A stretch of 50,472 nucleotides of DNA from an uncultured Bacilli bacterium (GCA_944373065.1 CALWAJ010000001.1:1-50472), one strand, 5' to 3'. Positions 28,660-50,461 are shown, counted from the first letter of the stretch. Numbers and translations: made by a program. Notes: generated from the letters alone by a model not told the origin.

Positions 28660-28693
28660 AATAAAATAATAAAACCCTTATAAAATAAGGGTT
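28660..28693 (-). terminator. Terminator downstream of the displaced tRNA-Phe 3' end (likely the original tRNA-Phe terminator)
   Basis: aacccttat / ataagggtt stem with a T-rich tail on the minus strand. Confidence 0.6.
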
Positions 28694-28704
28694 AAAAGTC
28701 TAAC

Positions 28705-28751
28705 TGGTGGCTCCAGCGGGAATCGAACCAGCGACACAAGGATTTTCAGTC
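28705..28751 (-). repeat. tRNA-Phe 3' fragment (tRNA nt 30-76 including CCA): element-distal att repeat
   Basis: 47/47 identical to 50182..50228. It ends inside the anticodon stem-loop. Confidence 0.9.
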
Positions 28752-28834
28752 TTTTACCTACTCTTTTTTATAGATTTAAGTAAATCCAAATATCTGACTA
28801 ATTCGGCCACAATTCGTTGTAATATGGGCATTTC

Positions 28835-28901: not shown

Positions 28902-29050
28902 TGTCCACAGTTGTCCACAGATTTTTAGGGGAACTTTTCGTCCACAACTTATATCTGTTTCGCTTGGAACACATATAATATAACATAAAAATAATGGTTA
29001 TGCAACATATTTTCGATAAAAAATAAGAAAAGTGGATTTTTCGTCCACAA
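28902..29050. promoter_or_regulatory. Cluster of four YGTCCACAR motifs (integrase arm-type sites and/or DnaA-box-like sites)
   Basis: tgtccacag 28902-10, tgtccacag 28912-20, cgtccacaa 28939-47, cgtccacaa 29042-50. All are in the same orientation. Confidence 0.6.
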
Positions 29051-41045: not shown

Positions 41046-41145
41046 TAAACTACACCTCTCTATAATAATAGATTATCACAGAGAAGATATTTTTACAACT
41101 GGCAGGCGACATTATATACAATTTTTATGTAAAATAAAAAGACAA

Positions 41146-41394
41146 CTACTTGTTGTCATCATTAATATCATCAAATAATTGTCTTATATCAATATCTAAA
41201 GCATTAGCAAATTTACCTAAAGCTTCAAGAGTTGGTGTTTTATCTACTGAAAGGCATTCAAGATCTCTTACGTATTGATGAGTAAATCCTGCTCTATCAG
41301 CTAATTCTTGTAGAGTATAATTTCTCATTTTTCGATACTTTCTTATGTTCTTTCTTACTAGTATAGATAAAGTCATTTTGTCATAATTTCTCAT
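41146..41394 (-). CDS. XRE-family HTH transcriptional regulator
   Basis: LRKYRKMRNYTLQELADRAGFTHQYVRDLE is a classic Cro/CI HTH. 82 aa. Confidence 0.85.
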   Translation of the reverse strand: MRNYDKMTLSILVRKNIRKYRKMRNYTLQELADRAGFTHQYVRDLECLSVDKTPTLEALGKFANALDIDIRQLFDDINDDNK

Positions 41395-41558
41395 AGGTAA
41401 TCACCACATTTCATAATACTATTATTGCAAATATTTTTTAAAACGTATGTCGCCTATGAGTTTAGAGGGATTATTGTATTAATTAAACACGGTGTAAACG
41501 ATTTTTCTTTAAGTAAACCTATAACACTAAACTAAATCAAATTAAATTAGAATAGTAA

Positions 41559-41879
41559 CTAGTGGCTTAATTCATCTAACTTTTTAAATATAGTAATTAT
41601 AATATTTCTTGTTTTCTCACTACCATTTAGAAATTCTAGTGCTTCTTCTTCACTCATTGTTAGTGTTCTAAAGTTAGTTGCCATATACTTTAATAGATCA
41701 TTAATTGGTGTTACTTTATCTTCTTGATTATCTATATTATCTCTAACTTTGATTATTTTAAAAGTTAATAGAACTAATTGTAGATCTACATCTTTTAATG
41801 GTGGTTTGTTATTCCATACTTCCTCTTGAAAATACTGCTCTATTAACTGTATTAAATTATCTAATGATTCTTTCACCAT
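41559..41879 (-). CDS. Hypothetical protein
   Basis: 106-aa ORF with an RBS (aagtgaggtg). Helical, no motif recognised. Confidence 0.45.
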   Translation of the reverse strand: MVKESLDNLIQLIEQYFQEEVWNNKPPLKDVDLQLVLLTFKIIKVRDNIDNQEDKVTPINDLLKYMATNFRTLTMSEEEALEFLNGSEKTRNIIITIFKKLDELSH

Positions 41880-42020
41880 AACACCTCACTTTCTTATACT
41901 TTAAATAAACAAATTAATCCCCAGTTAAACGATATAATTATTTAAAACAATATACAATACGATAATACTAATTAAACCAAATGTAAACCAATGATACAAC
42001 TATATTCTTAATATAATAAA

Positions 42021-42521
42021 TTACTTTTCAGCTACTAAAATTATACTGCCTATACTTTCTATTATTGGAAATATAATCTCATCAACATCCCTCATTTTTA
42101 AAGCTACTACAATAGCTAGTCCTTCTTCTTTCAGCTCTTTCAATAATGAAAATACTGTTTCACTATTACTATTAAGTAAATATTGAAAATCATTAATTAT
42201 TAAGATATTAACATTACTAGTATTGACTACATCTTTTAATGATTTTATATCAGTATCTTTGACATTTTTATATGCTATATCATTATCTAGTGTTATATTT
42301 CTTTTACCAATATACATTATTCTATTGGATTCATGTAACATTTCTATTAATTTCAATAGTAATTCTTTTCTATACTGTTTAGAATCTTCAAGAATAAACG
42401 TAATATCATGAATAACATTTTTCAAATTATAATCAAAGTTTTTTTCTAATATATCACTATAATCAATAATGAACACAGTACCTTTTCTACAATTAATAGT
42501 TATTCTTCTTAAATCTTTCAT
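42021..42521 (-). CDS. Hypothetical alpha/beta protein (Walker-B-like or STAS-like strand, no P-loop)
   Basis: VNILIINDFQYLLNSNSETVFSLLKELKEEGLAIVVALK. Separated by only 2 nt from the upstream 287-aa gene. Confidence 0.45.
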   Translation of the reverse strand: MKDLRRITINCRKGTVFIIDYSDILEKNFDYNLKNVIHDITFILEDSKQYRKELLLKLIEMLHESNRIMYIGKRNITLDNDIAYKNVKDTDIKSLKDVVNTSNVNILIINDFQYLLNSNSETVFSLLKELKEEGLAIVVALKMRDVDEIIFPIIESIGSIILVAEK

Positions 42522-42523
42522 AA

Positions 42524-43387
42524 TTAATTTCCAAGTAATAAGTCATATTCTTCTTTAACAATTTTAATCATACCTTGATGACTCATTTGTTTATTAGGTA
42601 GTTTCTCACTAAACTTAACTTTTCTATCTTTAAATACAGTAAAATCATCATAGAAAATATATCCTTTAGCAAAAGATTCTTTTAATTCATCTTCGTTTAG
42701 GTTATATAACCCAACTGGATAATTTAATAAACTAGCAAATAGTTTCCACTCATTATCAGTAGTAGGTTTATCAAACATTTCATAACGTACTACATCACAT
42801 CCAGCCACAATTTCATTACCTTGCTTAAATAAAATCTTGCTACCGGGTACAATCTTATTATCTTTGAAAGTAGCATCAATTCCAAAAATATTTGTTTTAG
42901 TCCAATTATCAATAGTAAGCATTCCTGCCACATAAGGATTATAATTTAGGACTATATACTCTAAACTATCATTACTATCAGTAATTGTTTCTTGCTTTAT
43001 ATCAATATAGCCTTTTAATTCAATAACTTCAAGATTAGATTTTTTATACTCATCTCTAACTTTTTGTATAATATTGCAATTATCTTCATAACATACTAAT
43101 ACATAGTTACGTTCTGGGATCATAGAAAGAACGTGTCCATGATTAATAAAATTATCTGATGTGTATTCAAACTCTAGTGTTACTCTATGTCCTTTATATT
43201 CAATATCATCAATATCAAAACCTCTTGATTTAGATGGTACTAATTTAGGAAAATCTAATTCCTCATGTAGTTTAGCAAAAGCCATAACTACTCCCAATTC
43301 TTCTTTAATATTTCCGTACATTGCTATTTTTTCCATTTTGCCATTCACCTCTAGTGCTATATTACTACACCTGTGGTGGTTAATCAA
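42524..43387 (-). CDS. Hypothetical two-domain protein: N-terminal PD-(D/E)xK-like nuclease core plus C-terminal PUA-like (EVE/ASCH-type) domain
   Basis: EELGVVMAFAKL...SRGFDIDDIEYKGHRVTLEFEY resembles an E...D...ExK/E restriction-fold core. The C-terminus YIVLNYNPY...PGSKILFKQGNEIVAGCDVV resembles PUA-like readers. The true start is probably MEKIAMYG (M18). Confidence 0.4.
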   Translation of the reverse strand: MINHHRCSNIALEVNGKMEKIAMYGNIKEELGVVMAFAKLHEELDFPKLVPSKSRGFDIDDIEYKGHRVTLEFEYTSDNFINHGHVLSMIPERNYVLVCYEDNCNIIQKVRDEYKKSNLEVIELKGYIDIKQETITDSNDSLEYIVLNYNPYVAGMLTIDNWTKTNIFGIDATFKDNKIVPGSKILFKQGNEIVAGCDVVRYEMFDKPTTDNEWKLFASLLNYPVGLYNLNEDELKESFAKGYIFYDDFTVFKDRKVKFSEKLPNKQMSHQGMIKIVKEEYDLLLGN

Positions 43388-43446
43388 GTACCTAAGGTAT
43401 AAAACAAATACACTTCAAGTTGTTAAAATTAAGTTAGGTGAGGAAA

Positions 43447-43824
43447 ATGATTATAAACGATAGAGAAAATTATGATAAAATTAGAGCTTCTATTTCCATG
43501 GATAATTTGAAAAAAATTATAGATGCTAAAGGTTTTACTACAACCAAAGTTGCTGTAGAATCTAAAATAAGCGATTCAGCTATTATTTCTTATATCTCTG
43601 GAAATAAGATACCCAGTCTTCCAGTGTTGATAAGTATAGCAAACTACCTAAATTGTAATTTAGATTATCTTGTTGGAAGAACTGATAATCCAATAAAAAT
43701 AGATGATATGAGTAAGTCATATAATGATAAAGATTTAATGTTGTTACTACAGAATATAAATTCTTTACCTAAAGATAAACAAGAACTAGTTAAGGCTTAT
43801 GTAAAAGGATTAATGGATAATTAA
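43447..43824 (+). CDS. XRE-family HTH regulator, divergent from the 287-aa gene
   Basis: KGFTTTKVAVESKISDSAIISYISGNKIPSLPVLISIANYLNCNLDYLVGR. ATG at 43447 preceded by aggtgagg. Confidence 0.8.
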   Translation: MIINDRENYDKIRASISMDNLKKIIDAKGFTTTKVAVESKISDSAIISYISGNKIPSLPVLISIANYLNCNLDYLVGRTDNPIKIDDMSKSYNDKDLMLLLQNINSLPKDKQELVKAYVKGLMDN

Positions 43825-43832
43825 TATAGAGA

Positions 43833-43897
43833 AGAAATATTACATATTATAATAATTAGATAAATGTAATTATATAGTAATGTAGTATTTCTTTTTT
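43833..43897 (+). terminator. Long hairpin terminator after the XRE gene
   Basis: agaaatattaca / tgtagtatttct stems plus TTTTTT. Confidence 0.55.
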
Positions 43898-43939: not shown

Positions 43940-44605
43940 CTAATTTGCAACAGTTTTTAGAAAATATTCCCATTTATTTAGTTTTAGGTTTGGTACTATA
44001 TCACTGTTATTAAACTTGTTCCAATAATTAAGAATATCTTTGATATAAAGTAAACTTGGTAGTTTTTCATTCACTGCTACTTTTAAGGCTTTAAGGACTA
44101 AAGTAGCATTGTAAGTTTTAATTAATGTGTTAATTATAGTTTTTTCTTCATTAGTTAGAAATCGATAAAATGCTTCTTCAAATTCATCATAAACTTTTAT
44201 TTCTTCACTTATAAAATTTTTGTTATGTATGAAACTTTTAGAGTGGTTATTTACATTTTTGATGATGAAAAGTAATTTATCATAATAAGGACTAATTATT
44301 TTAAGTACATCATTAGTAATATAATGTGATGTTCCTCTACTTGTGTTATTAATTCTAATAATAAACTTACCTTCTCTATTCTTTAAACATCTTTTGTTTT
44401 TAGCAAGAAAAGGACGGACATTTTCAATAATAGTTCTAATTTTAGTCATAGTTTCTTCATTTAATTGGAATAGTTTTTCACCTTTATTAGGACCATAAAC
44501 TATTCCATTATCATAAACAGTTATTTTATAGTATTGATTTAGTTGTAAACTGATATACCATTTGTTAGTTCTCATATTGATTCTTCCTTTCATAGTATCG
44601 TGCAA
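43940..44605 (-). CDS. DnaD-domain-like replication protein
   Basis: The C-terminal ...TLVLKALKVAVNEKLPSLLYIKDILNYWNK resembles the DnaD/DnaB_2 C-terminal motif (YI..IL..W). Confidence 0.4.
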   Translation of the reverse strand: MHDTMKGRINMRTNKWYISLQLNQYYKITVYDNGIVYGPNKGEKLFQLNEETMTKIRTIIENVRPFLAKNKRCLKNREGKFIIRINNTSRGTSHYITNDVLKIISPYYDKLLFIIKNVNNHSKSFIHNKNFISEEIKVYDEFEEAFYRFLTNEEKTIINTLIKTYNATLVLKALKVAVNEKLPSLLYIKDILNYWNKFNNSDIVPNLKLNKWEYFLKTVAN

Positions 44606-45212
44606 CGTGTAACCACATTTGCACCAGTTGTAACAAAGTTAATTATAAGTTAGATATAACACTATATAAGTGTTAGTAATAAACAGGATTAGCCCATAAT
44701 ATAAACGTGAATGTTAGTTGCACGATTTAGTTTCTGATTTTTAGTTATAATTGTTATTAAACTAGTTGTTAGTTTCATAACTGTTATTGTTATTAGTAAT
44801 AGTTAAATTATTAGTTTTAGTAGTGTTATTGTTAAGTTAACTCTCTTTAGTATTAATATTATAAGGTTTGTGGTAAGCTGTGCCTTGAAAATTGCAGATC
44901 CGTTTCATGGACGTACCTAATCCACGGCGAGCCGGCATCGATAACCCTTATTTTATTCAATTTGTTTACCACAAAATAAACAAGTGTAACAAAGTTTGAT
45001 TATTTAGTAGTATAAACCATCGAGATTTTAGTTTTACACCAAATTCAACAGTTTATGAACAAATTGAAAGCCATATCTGCGTCTGGCAAATTTAAAATAC
45101 CCATTTGTATTGAATATTTTAAACTTACTTTAAAAGGTTTTTGTTTTTAATAATGTTAATACTGATATTAGTATTATTAGTATTGTTGTTTTTATTTCAA
45201 CCAGCATTAATA
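44606..45212. other. ~600-bp non-coding region: candidate element origin and/or structured RNA
   Basis: No credible ORF. AT-rich iterated tagt/ttatt runs. A 26-nt direct repeat (44852-44877 and 45206-45231). A ~50% GC island at 44877-44945 bracketed by the inverted repeat tttgtggtaa / ttaccacaaa. Confidence 0.5.
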
Positions 45213-45369
45213 TTATAAGGTTTGTGATAAGTAGTGCTGTTTTCGAGTTAGCTCTCGCCAAAGTTGTAAATCAATCGTTGATATATGTGGATAATTACTA
45301 TCTTTGATTAAAAGTTTTATGATAATAACTATCACTTCACTAATATATATGAAACATTTATATAATATC

Positions 45370-45666
45370 TTAACTTTTTGATATTTTTTCAACAATAAGT
45401 TTTTCTTTATCTGTAATCTTTAAGTGATACTTTTCTTTTAATGTCTTGTCTATGAGATAATATAACAAATTCTTTCCTTTATCATCTGTTAAGTAATATT
45501 CTTTAGAATCGTTAATAATTCCATCTAAACTCATATAATTTCTATTATTAAACCTAGTATAGAAAGCATTGATATTGCTTGCTACTAAAGAAGCAAAGAA
45601 AAACATATAATTAGTTTCCAAAGCATTTACATAGTCATCTATTGTATCTATAACTGCACTATCCAT
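45370..45666 (-). CDS. Hypothetical protein
   Basis: 98-aa ORF downstream of the PcfJ-like gene. Confidence 0.45.
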   Translation of the reverse strand: MDSAVIDTIDDYVNALETNYMFFFASLVASNINAFYTRFNNRNYMSLDGIINDSKEYYLTDDKGKNLLYYLIDKTLKEKYHLKITDKEKLIVEKISKS

Positions 45667-45682
45667 AACTTGCTCCTTTCTC

Positions 45683-47119
45683 CTATCTTATATATGAATT
45701 GTTGGAATAAATCATCTTGTTTTTTGCCCATTTATTAATAAAATTCATTTGTTCATTGTTTGGAAGATAATTATCCTTTATTCTACATTGAACTACTCTA
45801 TTGTTTTTAACTTCTATTGTAACAAGTGATTTTTCTTTATGCTCTATTTCTCTCATAAAATAAATATCAGTTTCTGCTAAAGCATAATCATCAATATATG
45901 TCTTAACACAATTGTTTTGTTGTTTTGACTCATCAAGTAAACTCTCTACTGAATTAGCTGCAAAGACTACATACTTTTTATCATTATAAGTAAACTTATC
46001 TAATAGTTTAGCACGTTCTTTAATTAATTTATCATTTGACTCATTAAGAACTAACTTTAATAAATTAATAGCCTTATCATGTGCTTCCTTAAGATTTTTA
46101 GGATATAATACCCTACTATTTTTCATATCATATTCTAATCTTACACAAGCCTTAAGATAGTCCAAATATTCATATTCACTATTATAATTAATAGATAAAA
46201 CTTTCTTATAAGCCTTTTCTAAATTAACATAATTAGATAGTTCTTTTAAATTACCTATCCCTTTAAGTTTATCAATTAACTTTATATCTTCTTTTTGTAT
46301 AATCTTCAATACTTCTAATTCCTGTCTATCAATATTATTTCTTTTCATAAATGGATAAAATGTTTTAGGTACTCCAAAAATCTCTTTAAATGTTTTTCCA
46401 CTATTGAAACTATCTGCTTCACGAGCTAAATTATAAAGTTTTAATTTTACTAACATTTCAAAACTATGATAATATGCTAGTCTTGTAAAATAGTAAATAA
46501 AATCTATATAACTCATCTTGGCTACAAACTTATCTAACTGCGAATATTTTAAGTCAGTATTTTTTAATAGCCTTTTTAAATTATACGGGCATACCATACC
46601 TTGAACATCTCTATAAGCCCAACGATAATTTCTACCTCGCCAATATTCAAACTCTTGATAATGTGCTATATACATATAACCCATATGGTTATGAACTTGG
46701 TTAGTTACAAAATCCTTAATCTCATTATTATCAATAATCGTTCTCATATATTCAGTTATTTTGTGGGTGGTATGAAACTGATTATAAGTAGAATATAATT
46801 CAAAAGTTCTTAAGATAAAGGTATCTTCAATTCTATCTAATAGTTGCAAGTTATCCTTAAATTCACATTGTTGTAAACGATCAGTTTTTACAAGTAATGT
46901 TTGCTTACAATTAGGACATTTGATTTCATCATTAACTTTTACTTTAGAGATAAAATGATAGTCACAATTAGTGCAATAACATTTACTATTCTTACTTTTA
47001 ATAATTAAATTATGAGTTTGTTCTTTTTCCTTAATAAATCTTTCAAAACAACTTGGAATTATAAACTTTTCATCTGCCAAAGATAATAGTCTTCTATACT
47101 TTTTCTTGATATATGTCAA
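45683..47119 (-). CDS. PcfJ-like protein with an N-terminal Zn ribbon
   Basis: CYCTNCDYHF...CPNCKQTL. The C-terminal ESKQQNNCVKTYIDDYALAETDIYFMR...SLVTIEV resembles the PcfJ-family HCV..Y core. It overlaps the PcfK-like gene. Confidence 0.5.
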   Translation of the reverse strand: MTYIKKKYRRLLSLADEKFIIPSCFERFIKEKEQTHNLIIKSKNSKCYCTNCDYHFISKVKVNDEIKCPNCKQTLLVKTDRLQQCEFKDNLQLLDRIEDTFILRTFELYSTYNQFHTTHKITEYMRTIIDNNEIKDFVTNQVHNHMGYMYIAHYQEFEYWRGRNYRWAYRDVQGMVCPYNLKRLLKNTDLKYSQLDKFVAKMSYIDFIYYFTRLAYYHSFEMLVKLKLYNLAREADSFNSGKTFKEIFGVPKTFYPFMKRNNIDRQELEVLKIIQKEDIKLIDKLKGIGNLKELSNYVNLEKAYKKVLSINYNSEYEYLDYLKACVRLEYDMKNSRVLYPKNLKEAHDKAINLLKLVLNESNDKLIKERAKLLDKFTYNDKKYVVFAANSVESLLDESKQQNNCVKTYIDDYALAETDIYFMREIEHKEKSLVTIEVKNNRVVQCRIKDNYLPNNEQMNFINKWAKNKMIYSNNSYIR

Positions 47120-47472
47120 AACTCTAACTCCAAAGATAATTGACCTGTCGGCTTATCTTCTTTCTTCTCTACTTTAGTTTTTAAAGTAATTGGTATAGGG
47201 TTATTTAACCCTAATTCTTCATTATCTTTTTGAAAATACTCTAAAGACCAATTATATACTATTTCATCTTCAATAACTGCTACATTATTTACTGCTTGTT
47301 CTTTAGCTTTACGATTAATATAACTCATCATTTGTGTTAAGTTCTTTTCTTGATTAAGATAAACATCACTCATATCTGGTACTTTGATTAGATATTCAAG
47401 AATAATACTTAAGGCATTATCATTTTTTCCATCATCTCTATATAACTGTTTTAGTCTTTCGTATCCATCCAT
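47116..47472 (-). CDS. PcfK-like protein (the family that includes the anti-CRISPR AcrIIA9)
   Basis: 118 aa. The pattern LEYLIK...MMSYINRKAKEQAVNNVAVIEDEIVYNWSLEYFQKDNEELG parallels PcfK-like proteins. Adjacent to a PcfJ-like gene, as on pCF10. Confidence 0.45.
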   Translation of the reverse strand: MDGYERLKQLYRDDGKNDNALSIILEYLIKVPDMSDVYLNQEKNLTQMMSYINRKAKEQAVNNVAVIEDEIVYNWSLEYFQKDNEELGLNNPIPITLKTKVEKKEDKPTGQLSLELEF

Positions 47473-47507
47473 TTCGTTAATCCTTTCACTGTGTCTATAC
47501 TAATTTT

Positions 47508-47768
47508 CTACTTGTAGTTTCTAAATGCCTCAATAGTCGCTTTAATTAACTTTTTATTAAATCTAAATTGCCCCGACAATTGGAAATATATATTTGGAAC
47601 ATATTTTACTGCTTCCATTGCTAGATTAATATTACTATTAATTAATTCAACTAATATAGGAGAAACTTCATAGATTTTAGTATCCTTACTCATTACTTTT
47701 AGTATTTCTATAGCATCATTTCCATTAATTATCTTTACACCTACTCCAACATCATCTTTAGTTTCCAA
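47508..47768 (-). CDS. Hypothetical small protein (TTG start)
   Basis: 86-aa ORF with a strong RBS, AAAGGAGGTG, 4 nt upstream. Confidence 0.45.
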   Translation of the reverse strand: METKDDVGVGVKIINGNDAIEILKVMSKDTKIYEVSPILVELINSNINLAMEAVKYVPNIYFQLSGQFRFNKKLIKATIEAFRNYK

Positions 47769-47972
47769 TTTGCACCTCCTTTAACTACTAGTTAAACACA
47801 GTGTAATTTATTTACAACCCCCTAACAAAAATTAACAAAGAATAACAAAAAAAGATTATATTATTCATACAATCTTTTCATTTATATATTATTTTTATAA
47901 AATATTCATATCTTGAACATCTGCATTTAATAATCTGTTTATAATTTCTTTTACAATAATACCTAAATTATT

Positions 47973-50080: not shown

Positions 50081-50134
50081 CTGTGGACAAAAATAGTATA
50101 CTGTGGACGAAAATTTCAAATATTTTGTGGACAA
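50081..50134. promoter_or_regulatory. Cluster of three TGTGGAC(A/G)A motifs, inverted relative to the left-end cluster
   Basis: ctgtggacaa 50081-90, ctgtggacga 50101-10, tgtggacaa 50126-34. Confidence 0.6.
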
Positions 50135-50181: not shown

Positions 50182-50257
50182 TGGTGGCTCCAGCGGGAAT
50201 CGAACCAGCGACACAAGGATTTTCAGTCCTTTGCTCTACCGACTGAGCTATGAAGCC
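50182..50257 (-). tRNA. tRNA-Phe: tRNA-Phe (anticodon GAA), intact, CCA encoded
   Basis: The reverse complement folds as GGCTTCA-TA-GCTC-AGTCGGTA-GAGC-A-AAGGA-CTGAAAA-TCCTT-GTGTC-GCTGG-TTCGATT-CCCGC-TGGAGCC-A-CCA. There is one T-stem mismatch (U51/C63). Confidence 0.9.
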
Positions 50258-50314: not shown

Positions 50315-50335
50315 TTGTCCACACTCTGTCCACAG
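50315..50335. promoter_or_regulatory. Two more GTCCACA motifs between the intact and the decayed tRNA-Phe copies
   Basis: ttgtccaca 50315-23 and ctgtccacag 50326-35, in the same orientation as the left-end cluster. Confidence 0.55.
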
Positions 50336-50400: not shown

Positions 50401-50461
50401 GTGGCAGAACCTAGGACAAAGGATTTTCAGTCCTTTGCTCTACCGACTGAGCTATGAAGCC
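50401..50461 (-). pseudogene. Decayed tRNA-Phe copy: nt 1-43 are perfect, the 3' half is degenerate with a T-arm deletion
   Basis: 50419-50461 is identical to 50215-50257. Downstream it reads TGTCCTAGGTTC--TGCCAC, against GTGTCGCTGGTTCGATTCCCGCTGGAGCCACCA in the intact gene. Confidence 0.75.

Follow-up and report, generated by a model that had tools for sequence, protein, structure and literature searches.

Candidate control region with a putative leader RNA upstream of a DnaD-like gene in an integrative element of uncultured gut Bacilli

The non-coding region that precedes the DnaD-like gene of an integrative element from uncultured gut Bacilli is a diverged tandem duplication with a unique GC-rich island between its two units. 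We tentatively favour the view, which we would not yet call probable, that it is the control region of this gene and comprises a promoter/operator and a structured leader RNA on the sense strand. The anatomy of the region, its duplication, purifying selection, a strand-specific folding potential and the non-coding nature of its core are established. At present, the region amounts to a clearly bounded candidate rather than a discovery.

The window, i.e. the whole stretch of DNA analysed, is an entire 50.5-kb contig of a metagenome-assembled genome (1.19 Mb, 27% GC) in which the region is single-copy. The element of ~21.5 kb lies at window ~28.7-50.18 kb, and its genes are nearly all on the minus strand, as are those flanking the non-coding region (Table 1). 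It encodes a DnaA ATPase core and DnaB-like ATPases. The DnaD-like gene is its only DnaD-domain gene, and gene calls on all relatives agree on ATG 44575 as the start. The only family match of the protein is a DnaB_2/DnaD domain at residues 129-198; the N-terminal ~115 residues have no match in Pfam, PHROG or the PDB, and their relatives are only stand-alone proteins of ~110 aa that lack a family assignment. Among 1.84 billion representatives, all full-length forms fall into a single cluster at 50% identity. Reading the DNA with genetic code Table 4 did not improve the open frames and was rejected. A first-pass annotation of this DNA had described a 600-bp gene-free region; gene-free it is, but its actual span is 794 bp. 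The individual features named there were all found again, at their positions or 1-2 nt from them.

Table 1. Features of the non-coding region and of the element that contains it (window coordinates)
Feature	Position	Strand	Description
Partial tRNA copy (3' part)	28688-28765		attachment-site remnant; marks the integrase-side end of the element
Tyrosine integrase and excisionase-like gene	29.0-30.8 kb		
DnaD-like gene	43940-44575	-	211 aa; ATG at 44575
Whole non-coding region	44576-45369	-	794 bp, from the stop of the 98-aa ORF to the DnaD-like ATG
Block D3a	44612-44640	-	AACTTTGTTAC..TGTGGT; ends 36 nt before the DnaD-like ATG
Palindrome TAACACT-N5-AGTGTTA	44657-44675		perfect 7-5-7; beside minus-strand TATAAT (44647-44642)
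Proximal array	44782-44838	+	~19 trinucleotides T-A-N; minus strand G-free and ACTAA-rich
Block D2a	44849-44883	-	GCACAGCTTACCACAAACCTTATAATATTAATACT; TATAAT at 44863-44858
Conserved core	44849-45140	-	~290 nt; predicted multi-helix sense RNA ending in the GC hairpin
GC-rich imperfect hairpin (predicted)	44877-44934	-	18 pairs, 4 of them G-U
Block D3b	44966-44996	-	invariant in relatives; followed by AAGGG-N6-ATG (44938)
10-bp direct repeat ACTAAAATCT	45028-45037 and 47672-47681	- (first copy)	bounds the L043 deletion
Distal array	45140-45202	+	~19 trinucleotides T-(A/G)-N; has indels and varies more than any other part of the region
Block D2b (distal copy)	45203-45237	-	TATAAT at 45217-45212; TAGAAT in some relatives
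DnaA box	45286-45294	-	perfect consensus TTATCCACA; inside an AT-rich 15-bp inverted repeat
98-aa ORF	45370-45666	-	follows the PcfK- and PcfJ-like genes
tRNA-Phe	50182-50257		far end of the element

Some further sequences were seen at the ends of the element. A truncated, tRNA-Phe-like second copy (50402-50461) lies beyond the intact tRNA-Phe and hints at an earlier tandem insertion. Three direct repeats TTTT(T/C)GTCCACA with 22-nt spacing are located between tRNA-Phe and a 448-aa gene (50082-50134), two further GTCCACA boxes in inverted orientation follow past tRNA-Phe (50315-50335), and one TTGTCCACA is found near the integrase-side attachment site (28911-28919). These boxes resemble DnaA boxes with one mismatch; their location at both element ends suggests arm-type sites of the integrase/excisionase.

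The duplication is best seen in the direct repeat 44849-44883 / 45203-45237, which is identical at 31 of 35 positions and includes an exact 21-mer, compared with a longest exact repeat of at most 15 nt in 300 shuffles. A 26-nt direct repeat with a 354-bp period, as had been reported in the first-pass annotation, is thus borne out and extended. It forms, together with the gtaacaaagtt pair (44630 and 44986) and a third block, the colinear parts of one diverged tandem duplication, with blocks 354-366 bp apart and a period of ~355 bp; the gtaacaaagtt copies are real, but do not stand as a separate motif. Aligned unit against unit, the duplication reaches z = 10.2 relative to shuffles. The stretches between the blocks show faint similarity only (z = 2.3), with ~50-55% identity outside the blocks, and the segment that follows the distal D2 block is unrelated to the GC island (z = 0.05). 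On the gene strand, the order is [D2b - tract - middle - D3b] - island - [D2a - tract - middle - D3a] - DnaD-like gene. Relatives reveal further duplicated sequence, for instance CAGAAACTAAATC in both units, and two alternative forms of the sequence after D2. Since all four unit combinations of these forms are present, the duplicated units still exchange sequence. The inverted repeat that had been described as enclosing the island (44867-76 / 44966-75) is present and perfect, but it is not significant: the count of perfect inverted repeats of at least 10 nt is 3 against 1.2 +/- 1.1 in shuffles, and 12% of the shuffles reach 3. Its left arm reads TTTCAAT in five relatives, with the other arm unchanged. 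A stem formed by this repeat around the island was therefore rejected as being at chance level and broken in relatives.

The GC-rich island itself, another feature of the first-pass annotation, was confirmed with 53% GC over 44880-44939. Of the 111 windows of the assembly that reach at least 50% GC, all but 16 belong to long open frames or tRNAs, and the other non-coding GC islands are rRNA pieces, the partial tRNA copy, repeat arrays, a few short unidentified stretches and a probable contaminant contig. This contig (C110) is high in GC throughout and probably a contaminant of the bin; GC-rich direct repeats that resemble arrays of the CRISPR or another type are found on three others (C28, C42 and C45). 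Several identities of the island could be discarded. A CRISPR-repeat mimic was rejected, as the island has no similarity to the repeat arrays of the assembly. ARAGORN finds no tRNA here, and searches of the island against the assembly (blastn-short and tblastx) gave chance matches only, which speaks against a tRNA, an attachment-site remnant or a copy of host DNA. A small frame with a ribosome-binding site does open within the island at 44938 on the minus strand (MPARRGLGTSMKRIC...), but it is not conserved, as a 1-nt indel puts the relatives 6:6 into two frames. This split and the absence of a period-3 signal from the core indicate that the core is not coding, and a protein-coding island was rejected on the same grounds.

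Selection on the region was assessed with 12 distinct versions of the locus from public metagenomes, whose DnaD-like proteins are 91-99% identical. All these relatives are close, and the conservation rests on the ~14% variability of synonymous sites: 87 of 609 third codon positions of the flanking genes are variable (14.3%), compared with 58 of 1217 first and second positions (4.8%). In the GC island (44877-44951, 75 nt), 1 site of 75 varies (p = 4e-4), and in the core (44877-45129) 14 of 253 (p = 2e-4). The AT tracts differ at 17-25% of their sites and have many indels. Two polymorphisms occur in the island, T/C at 44891 and the 1-nt indel at 44893, and both fall into a predicted internal loop. 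Judged by this variation, the island and ~250 nt of its surroundings are under purifying selection. This bears on the reading that the region is a neutral relic, consisting of a duplicated promoter region and a foreign GC-rich DNA fragment that are functionless now. The divergence of the units outside the blocks, the absence of an island homologue elsewhere in the collections searched and the loss of part of the region in a deletion variant would fit a relic. However, variation in island and core is much lower than at synonymous sites in spite of the AT-biased mutation expected at 27% GC, and the D2 and D3 blocks were kept in both copies while the rest decayed. We therefore consider a relic highly improbable.

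The conserved core is also the part of the region that is predicted to fold. The minus strand, which is the strand of the flanking genes, gives a fold of -68.6 kcal/mol against -50.8 +/- 4.1 kcal/mol for shuffled sequences (z = -4.3; none of 200 shuffles was as good), whereas the plus strand reaches z = -0.4. In four relatives the same helices are predicted, with z = -3.6 to -6.2 for the sense and 0 to -1.8 for the antisense strand. This fold is the most extreme among 108 windows of the element; 106 others have a mean z of -0.54 (sd 1.23), and three of them reach -3.4 to -3.8. The hairpin of the island would form on the minus strand only, because 4 of its 18 pairs are G-U, and taken alone it does not differ significantly from shuffles (z = -1.5). 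Since the island is unstable as single-stranded DNA, a DNA hairpin of the ssi or sso type was rejected. G-U pairs account for 20% of the predicted pairs of the core. The 87 predicted pairs show no compensatory change, three compatible one-sided changes and six broken cells, mostly at helix ends, in sequences too similar to weigh either way. Rfam had been proposed earlier as a check, and no RNA family was matched: cmscan with Rfam 15 on 44400-45500 returned, at E up to 10, only a chance match of 14.7 bits to mir-451 in an AT tract, and at the gathering score the whole window yields matches to the tRNA model only (three). A known RNA family was accordingly rejected for the region. The structured RNA suggested in the first-pass annotation is thus favoured indirectly, by the constraint, by the rarity of such GC islands and by the strand-specific fold of the core, but not by the hairpin alone, by Rfam or by covariation.

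Transcription of the core could come from the upstream operon. No intrinsic terminator was found in 44400-45500 on either strand; the minus-strand GC hairpin is followed by UUACCACAAACC, and an intrinsic terminator or attenuator, i.e. a GC stem with a U run, was rejected because this interval contains no such site. A search for the Rho_RNA_bind domain gave no Rho in this genome or in any of 12 genomes of the genus, several of which are more than 90% complete; the control genomes match, and two genomes of the class also have Rho. A Rho-dependent attenuator could therefore be dismissed. In the absence of both a terminator and Rho, read-through from the upstream operon is likely. Closer to the gene, ~70 nt before it, lies the window's only perfect copy of the 7-5-7 palindrome. 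In relatives the centre of the palindrome differs but its arms are preserved, and its half-site ATAACACTA recurs at 41521 and 44821. As far as sequence can tell, palindrome and TATAAT are likely the operator/promoter of the DnaD-like gene. Promoter-like matches in general number 4 as compared to 8.4 expected from shuffles, and promoter assignments are weak because consensus matches are fewer than chance. Consensus promoters inside the AT tracts were rejected for the same reason and because their spacing is not kept in relatives. Note that a TTACAC(N)GT-type motif occurs on the minus strand at 47806, 44989, 44612, 41497 and 36540, 30-105 nt upstream of genes that lead operons (an 86-aa ORF, the island ATG, the DnaD-like gene, an 82-aa HTH gene and a 102-aa ORF). 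TTACAC on this strand is intergenic in 5 of 9 matches, and a TTACAC-type motif is part of both D3 blocks. The motif may be a shared operator or promoter element.

The model that we favour combines these elements. Read on the gene strand, the control region would begin with a distal module of ~270 bp that consists of D2 with its TATAAT, a G-poor trinucleotide tract, the middle and D3. The unique GC-rich stem-loop of ~60-85 nt would come next, followed by the proximal copy of the module with the palindromic operator and a TATAAT and, finally, by the ribosome-binding site and the ATG of the DnaD-like gene. We assume that sense transcription enters the region by read-through and/or starts at the TATAAT elements, and that the core of ~290 nt folds into a multi-helix RNA that ends in the GC hairpin. 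This RNA would act in cis on processing, stability or translation and would thereby set the level of the DnaD-like protein and, in consequence, the replication of the element. Transcription, a function of the RNA and the operator are what we infer here. The tandem duplication, the constraint, the non-coding core, the folding, the composition, the presumed read-through and the putative operator all support a leader RNA, and on balance they make it a plausible but still doubtful assignment. Several observations stand against it: the z value of the fold is not unique, a fifth of the pairs are G-U, compensatory changes are absent, promoter matches are few and Rfam gives no match. The trinucleotide arrays are left unexplained by a leader RNA.

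Natural variants of the locus speak to this model in two ways. Homologues were sought in phage and plasmid collections, IMG/VR, species genomes, JGI metagenomes and 400 genomes of the family by blastn, by exact and gapped patterns and by a covariance model of the hairpin. None of 60 relatives contains the region, nor do the phage and plasmid collections. Exact and gapped island patterns matched three close relatives only, in the species genomes and JGI metagenomes, and nothing in IMG/VR; the hairpin model found no match in the 400 genomes of the family. Recovered were only close relatives (L045 and L046 with 94-96% and L084 with 92% identity), the DnaD-like proteins of which are at least 83% identical. 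Across all collections searched, the region is lineage-specific, with homologues only within a narrow lineage of uncultured gut Bacilli. Two variants, L043 and L044, have lost window 41114-43892, a block of genes with the order HTH-287-166-106-HTH. L043 is also devoid of 45033-47671 (2.64 kb), the PcfK/PcfJ block; the L044 contig is short, starts inside the region and leaves that part uncovered. Because they are lost in natural variants, 41114-43892 and 45033-47671 look like dispensable cassettes. L043 retains the proximal 457 bp together with the DnaD-like gene, a linkage that we cite for the leader RNA, but the same deletion takes away the 5' third of the predicted fold, which argues against it.

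The AT-rich iterated tagt/ttatt runs of the first-pass annotation are real and correspond to two period-3 trinucleotide arrays. T is found in 17 of 19 units, the period-3 power amounts to 4.6 (0.6 +/- 0.4 in shuffles), and ACTAA occurs 13 times on the minus strand where 4.3 copies are expected (z = 4.7). The whole assembly contains 28 such arrays; four are located outside long open frames, two of them in the present region. In the long open frames of the genome, most comparable arrays are read in another phase, as A-N-T codons. By nearest-neighbour stability, the helix of the AT tracts lies at the 88th-95th percentile of the window, and 15 other stretches are less stable. On the plus strand a hydrophobic frame runs through both units in 12 of 12 variants (e.g. 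MLLVIVKLLVLVVLLLS and MFLIMLILILVLLVLLFLFQPALIL), and most indels there are multiples of three. This has led us to consider a pair of tandem modules resembling type-I toxin-antitoxin loci, in which each unit would encode a very hydrophobic plus-strand peptide of 17-36 aa across its array and a minus-strand antisense RNA from the TATAAT of D2; the distal antisense RNA would have the conserved core as its body. Type-I loci commonly take the form of short tandem repeats in the intergenic DNA of mobile elements, and the minus-strand TATAAT overlaps the stop codon of the hydrophobic frame, both of which would be in agreement with such modules. The open frame, however, is not independent evidence, because a T at every third base of an array inevitably keeps that frame open, and the phase of most arrays in long open frames is a different one. 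No ribosome-binding site precedes the hydrophobic frames, although a clear one is seen before most of the element's annotated genes, and neither a promoter nor a terminator was found on the plus strand. Even between near-identical elements the peptide would differ in length, from 12 to 36 aa, and it would be encoded by the most variable stretch of the locus. Toxin-antitoxin-like modules are thus improbable in our view.

The same arrays are central to a further possibility, namely that the region serves the element as its vegetative origin. In this case the DnaD-like protein would bind boxes of the ACCACA type in D2 and D3, the T-A-N arrays would be opened and bound in single-stranded form, and host DnaA would bind at 45286; the arrays are likened to the DnaA-trios and to the TnnT motif of DnaD at oriC of B. 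subtilis. DnaD indeed binds TnnT pairs (PMC10201434). The region lies directly upstream of the only DnaD-domain gene, the product of which combines an unknown N-terminal domain with a DnaD domain in the layout of phage replisome organisers, and the element carries the genes for a DnaA ATPase core and DnaB-like ATPases. The order of box, AT tract, repeats, palindromic operator and replication gene resembles that of iteron-plasmid origins, and ACCACA boxes form inverted pairs around each AT tract. Furthermore, variable arrays next to conserved boxes and a conserved core are what one would expect of an unwinding region beside binding sites. What speaks most strongly for an origin is where the region lies, together with its two arrays of ~19 trinucleotides with T at every third base, a rarity outside long open frames.

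The specific tests for an origin gave a different picture. Iterons are defined by at least three direct repeats of ~17-22 bp at helical-turn spacing, but a repeat search and Tandem Repeats Finder detected only families of two copies, spaced 354-366 bp apart, and two very short AT repeats. With respect to a phage replisome organiser, neither a Phage_rep_org_N domain nor a repeat array was present inside 43940-44575. The DnaA box emphasised in the first-pass annotation exists and is the only perfect one in the window, but its significance is not upheld: the frequency of TTATNCACA is, by our own estimate, about that predicted from composition, boxes with at most one mismatch number 21 in the window against 17.3 expected and are thus not enriched, and the site reads TTATTCACA, TTATTCATT or TTACTCACT in relatives. 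Under the search rule of the basal unwinding system, three or more DnaA-trios (3'-NAN-5' with a conserved middle A) have to lie no more than 16 bp from a DnaA box (PMC8287927). Arrays are present here, but the sole perfect box is 88 bp away from the distal one, and it is T rather than A, the expected key base of the trio, that is the more constant in them. The D2 motifs TGTGGTAAG and TGTGATAAG are nearer, at 23-32 bp from the arrays, and differ at 3-4 positions from TGTGGATAA; several relatives carry three mutated positions in the D2a box. Fifteen other stretches of the window are less stable than the AT tracts, the island is not stable as a single-stranded DNA hairpin, and a pure DNA model assigns no role to the strand-specific folding of the core. 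The earlier conclusion from iterons and a DnaA box to an origin is consequently supported by none of the specific tests, as there are no iterons and no cluster of boxes, the AT tracts do not appear unusually unstable and the inverted repeat is at chance level. Altogether, we regard an origin as unlikely.

Leader RNA and origin are compatible with each other, since a transcribed leader can overlap an origin. They would be united in an RNA-coupled, oriC-like origin, in which the T-A-N arrays were landing pads for the DnaD-domain protein and the DnaA-core ATPase, and a sense RNA of ~290 nt primed or licensed initiation; we see this as a slim prospect. The probability remaining beyond the four readings goes to other functions. 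If the core is a cis-acting RNA, as we tentatively propose, it would be an unclassified structured RNA that controls the replication of a mobile element in poorly known, uncultured gut Bacilli with small genomes, and might represent a new RNA family. If the arrays bind the DnaD-domain protein as single strands, they would provide a compact natural system for strand choice by DnaD-type proteins, which is still an open question for chromosomal origins.

The region shares features with several known systems. Like the basal unwinding system of bacterial oriC (PMC8287927, PMC10201434), it has trinucleotides of constant T/A phase, which read as TnnT on one strand and as NAN on the opposite one, a DnaD-domain gene adjoins it, and a DnaA ATPase core gene is part of the element. 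In contrast to that system, its arrays comprise ~19 units and are hypervariable, the nearest true DnaA box is 88 bp away instead of at most 16 bp, and T is constant instead of the middle A. The succession of DnaA box, AT-rich tract, repeats, palindromic operator and replication gene is that of iteron origins (pSC101, F, P1 and RK2), and inverted boxes or repeats flank an AT-rich stretch as in SaPI/PICI origins. Unlike in those origins, two long repeats 354 bp apart take the place of at least three close iterons, the single DnaA box is unconserved and the AT tracts do not appear exceptional. In Gram-positive theta plasmids of the Inc18 group such as pIP501 and pAMbeta1, which have long structured leaders and countertranscript control, a few hundred non-coding bases precede the rep gene; they contain a repressor operator and a folded leader RNA that determines how much replication protein is made. 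The present region differs from these plasmids in lacking sequence or Rfam similarity, an attenuator terminator and an identifiable antisense promoter, in the DnaD-domain protein that replaces one of the RepR type and in the integrative nature of the element. It corresponds to them in having a non-coding stretch before a replication gene with an operator and a folded leader RNA, both putative here. In the origin of the lactococcal phage c2 and in RNA-primed origins of the ColE1 type, a non-coding, transcribed and folded region yields an RNA that takes part in initiation; an RNA-primed or RNA-regulated origin had also been raised in the first-pass annotation. There is no sequence similarity to these origins either, but the region is likewise non-coding, predicted to be folded and adjacent to replication functions.
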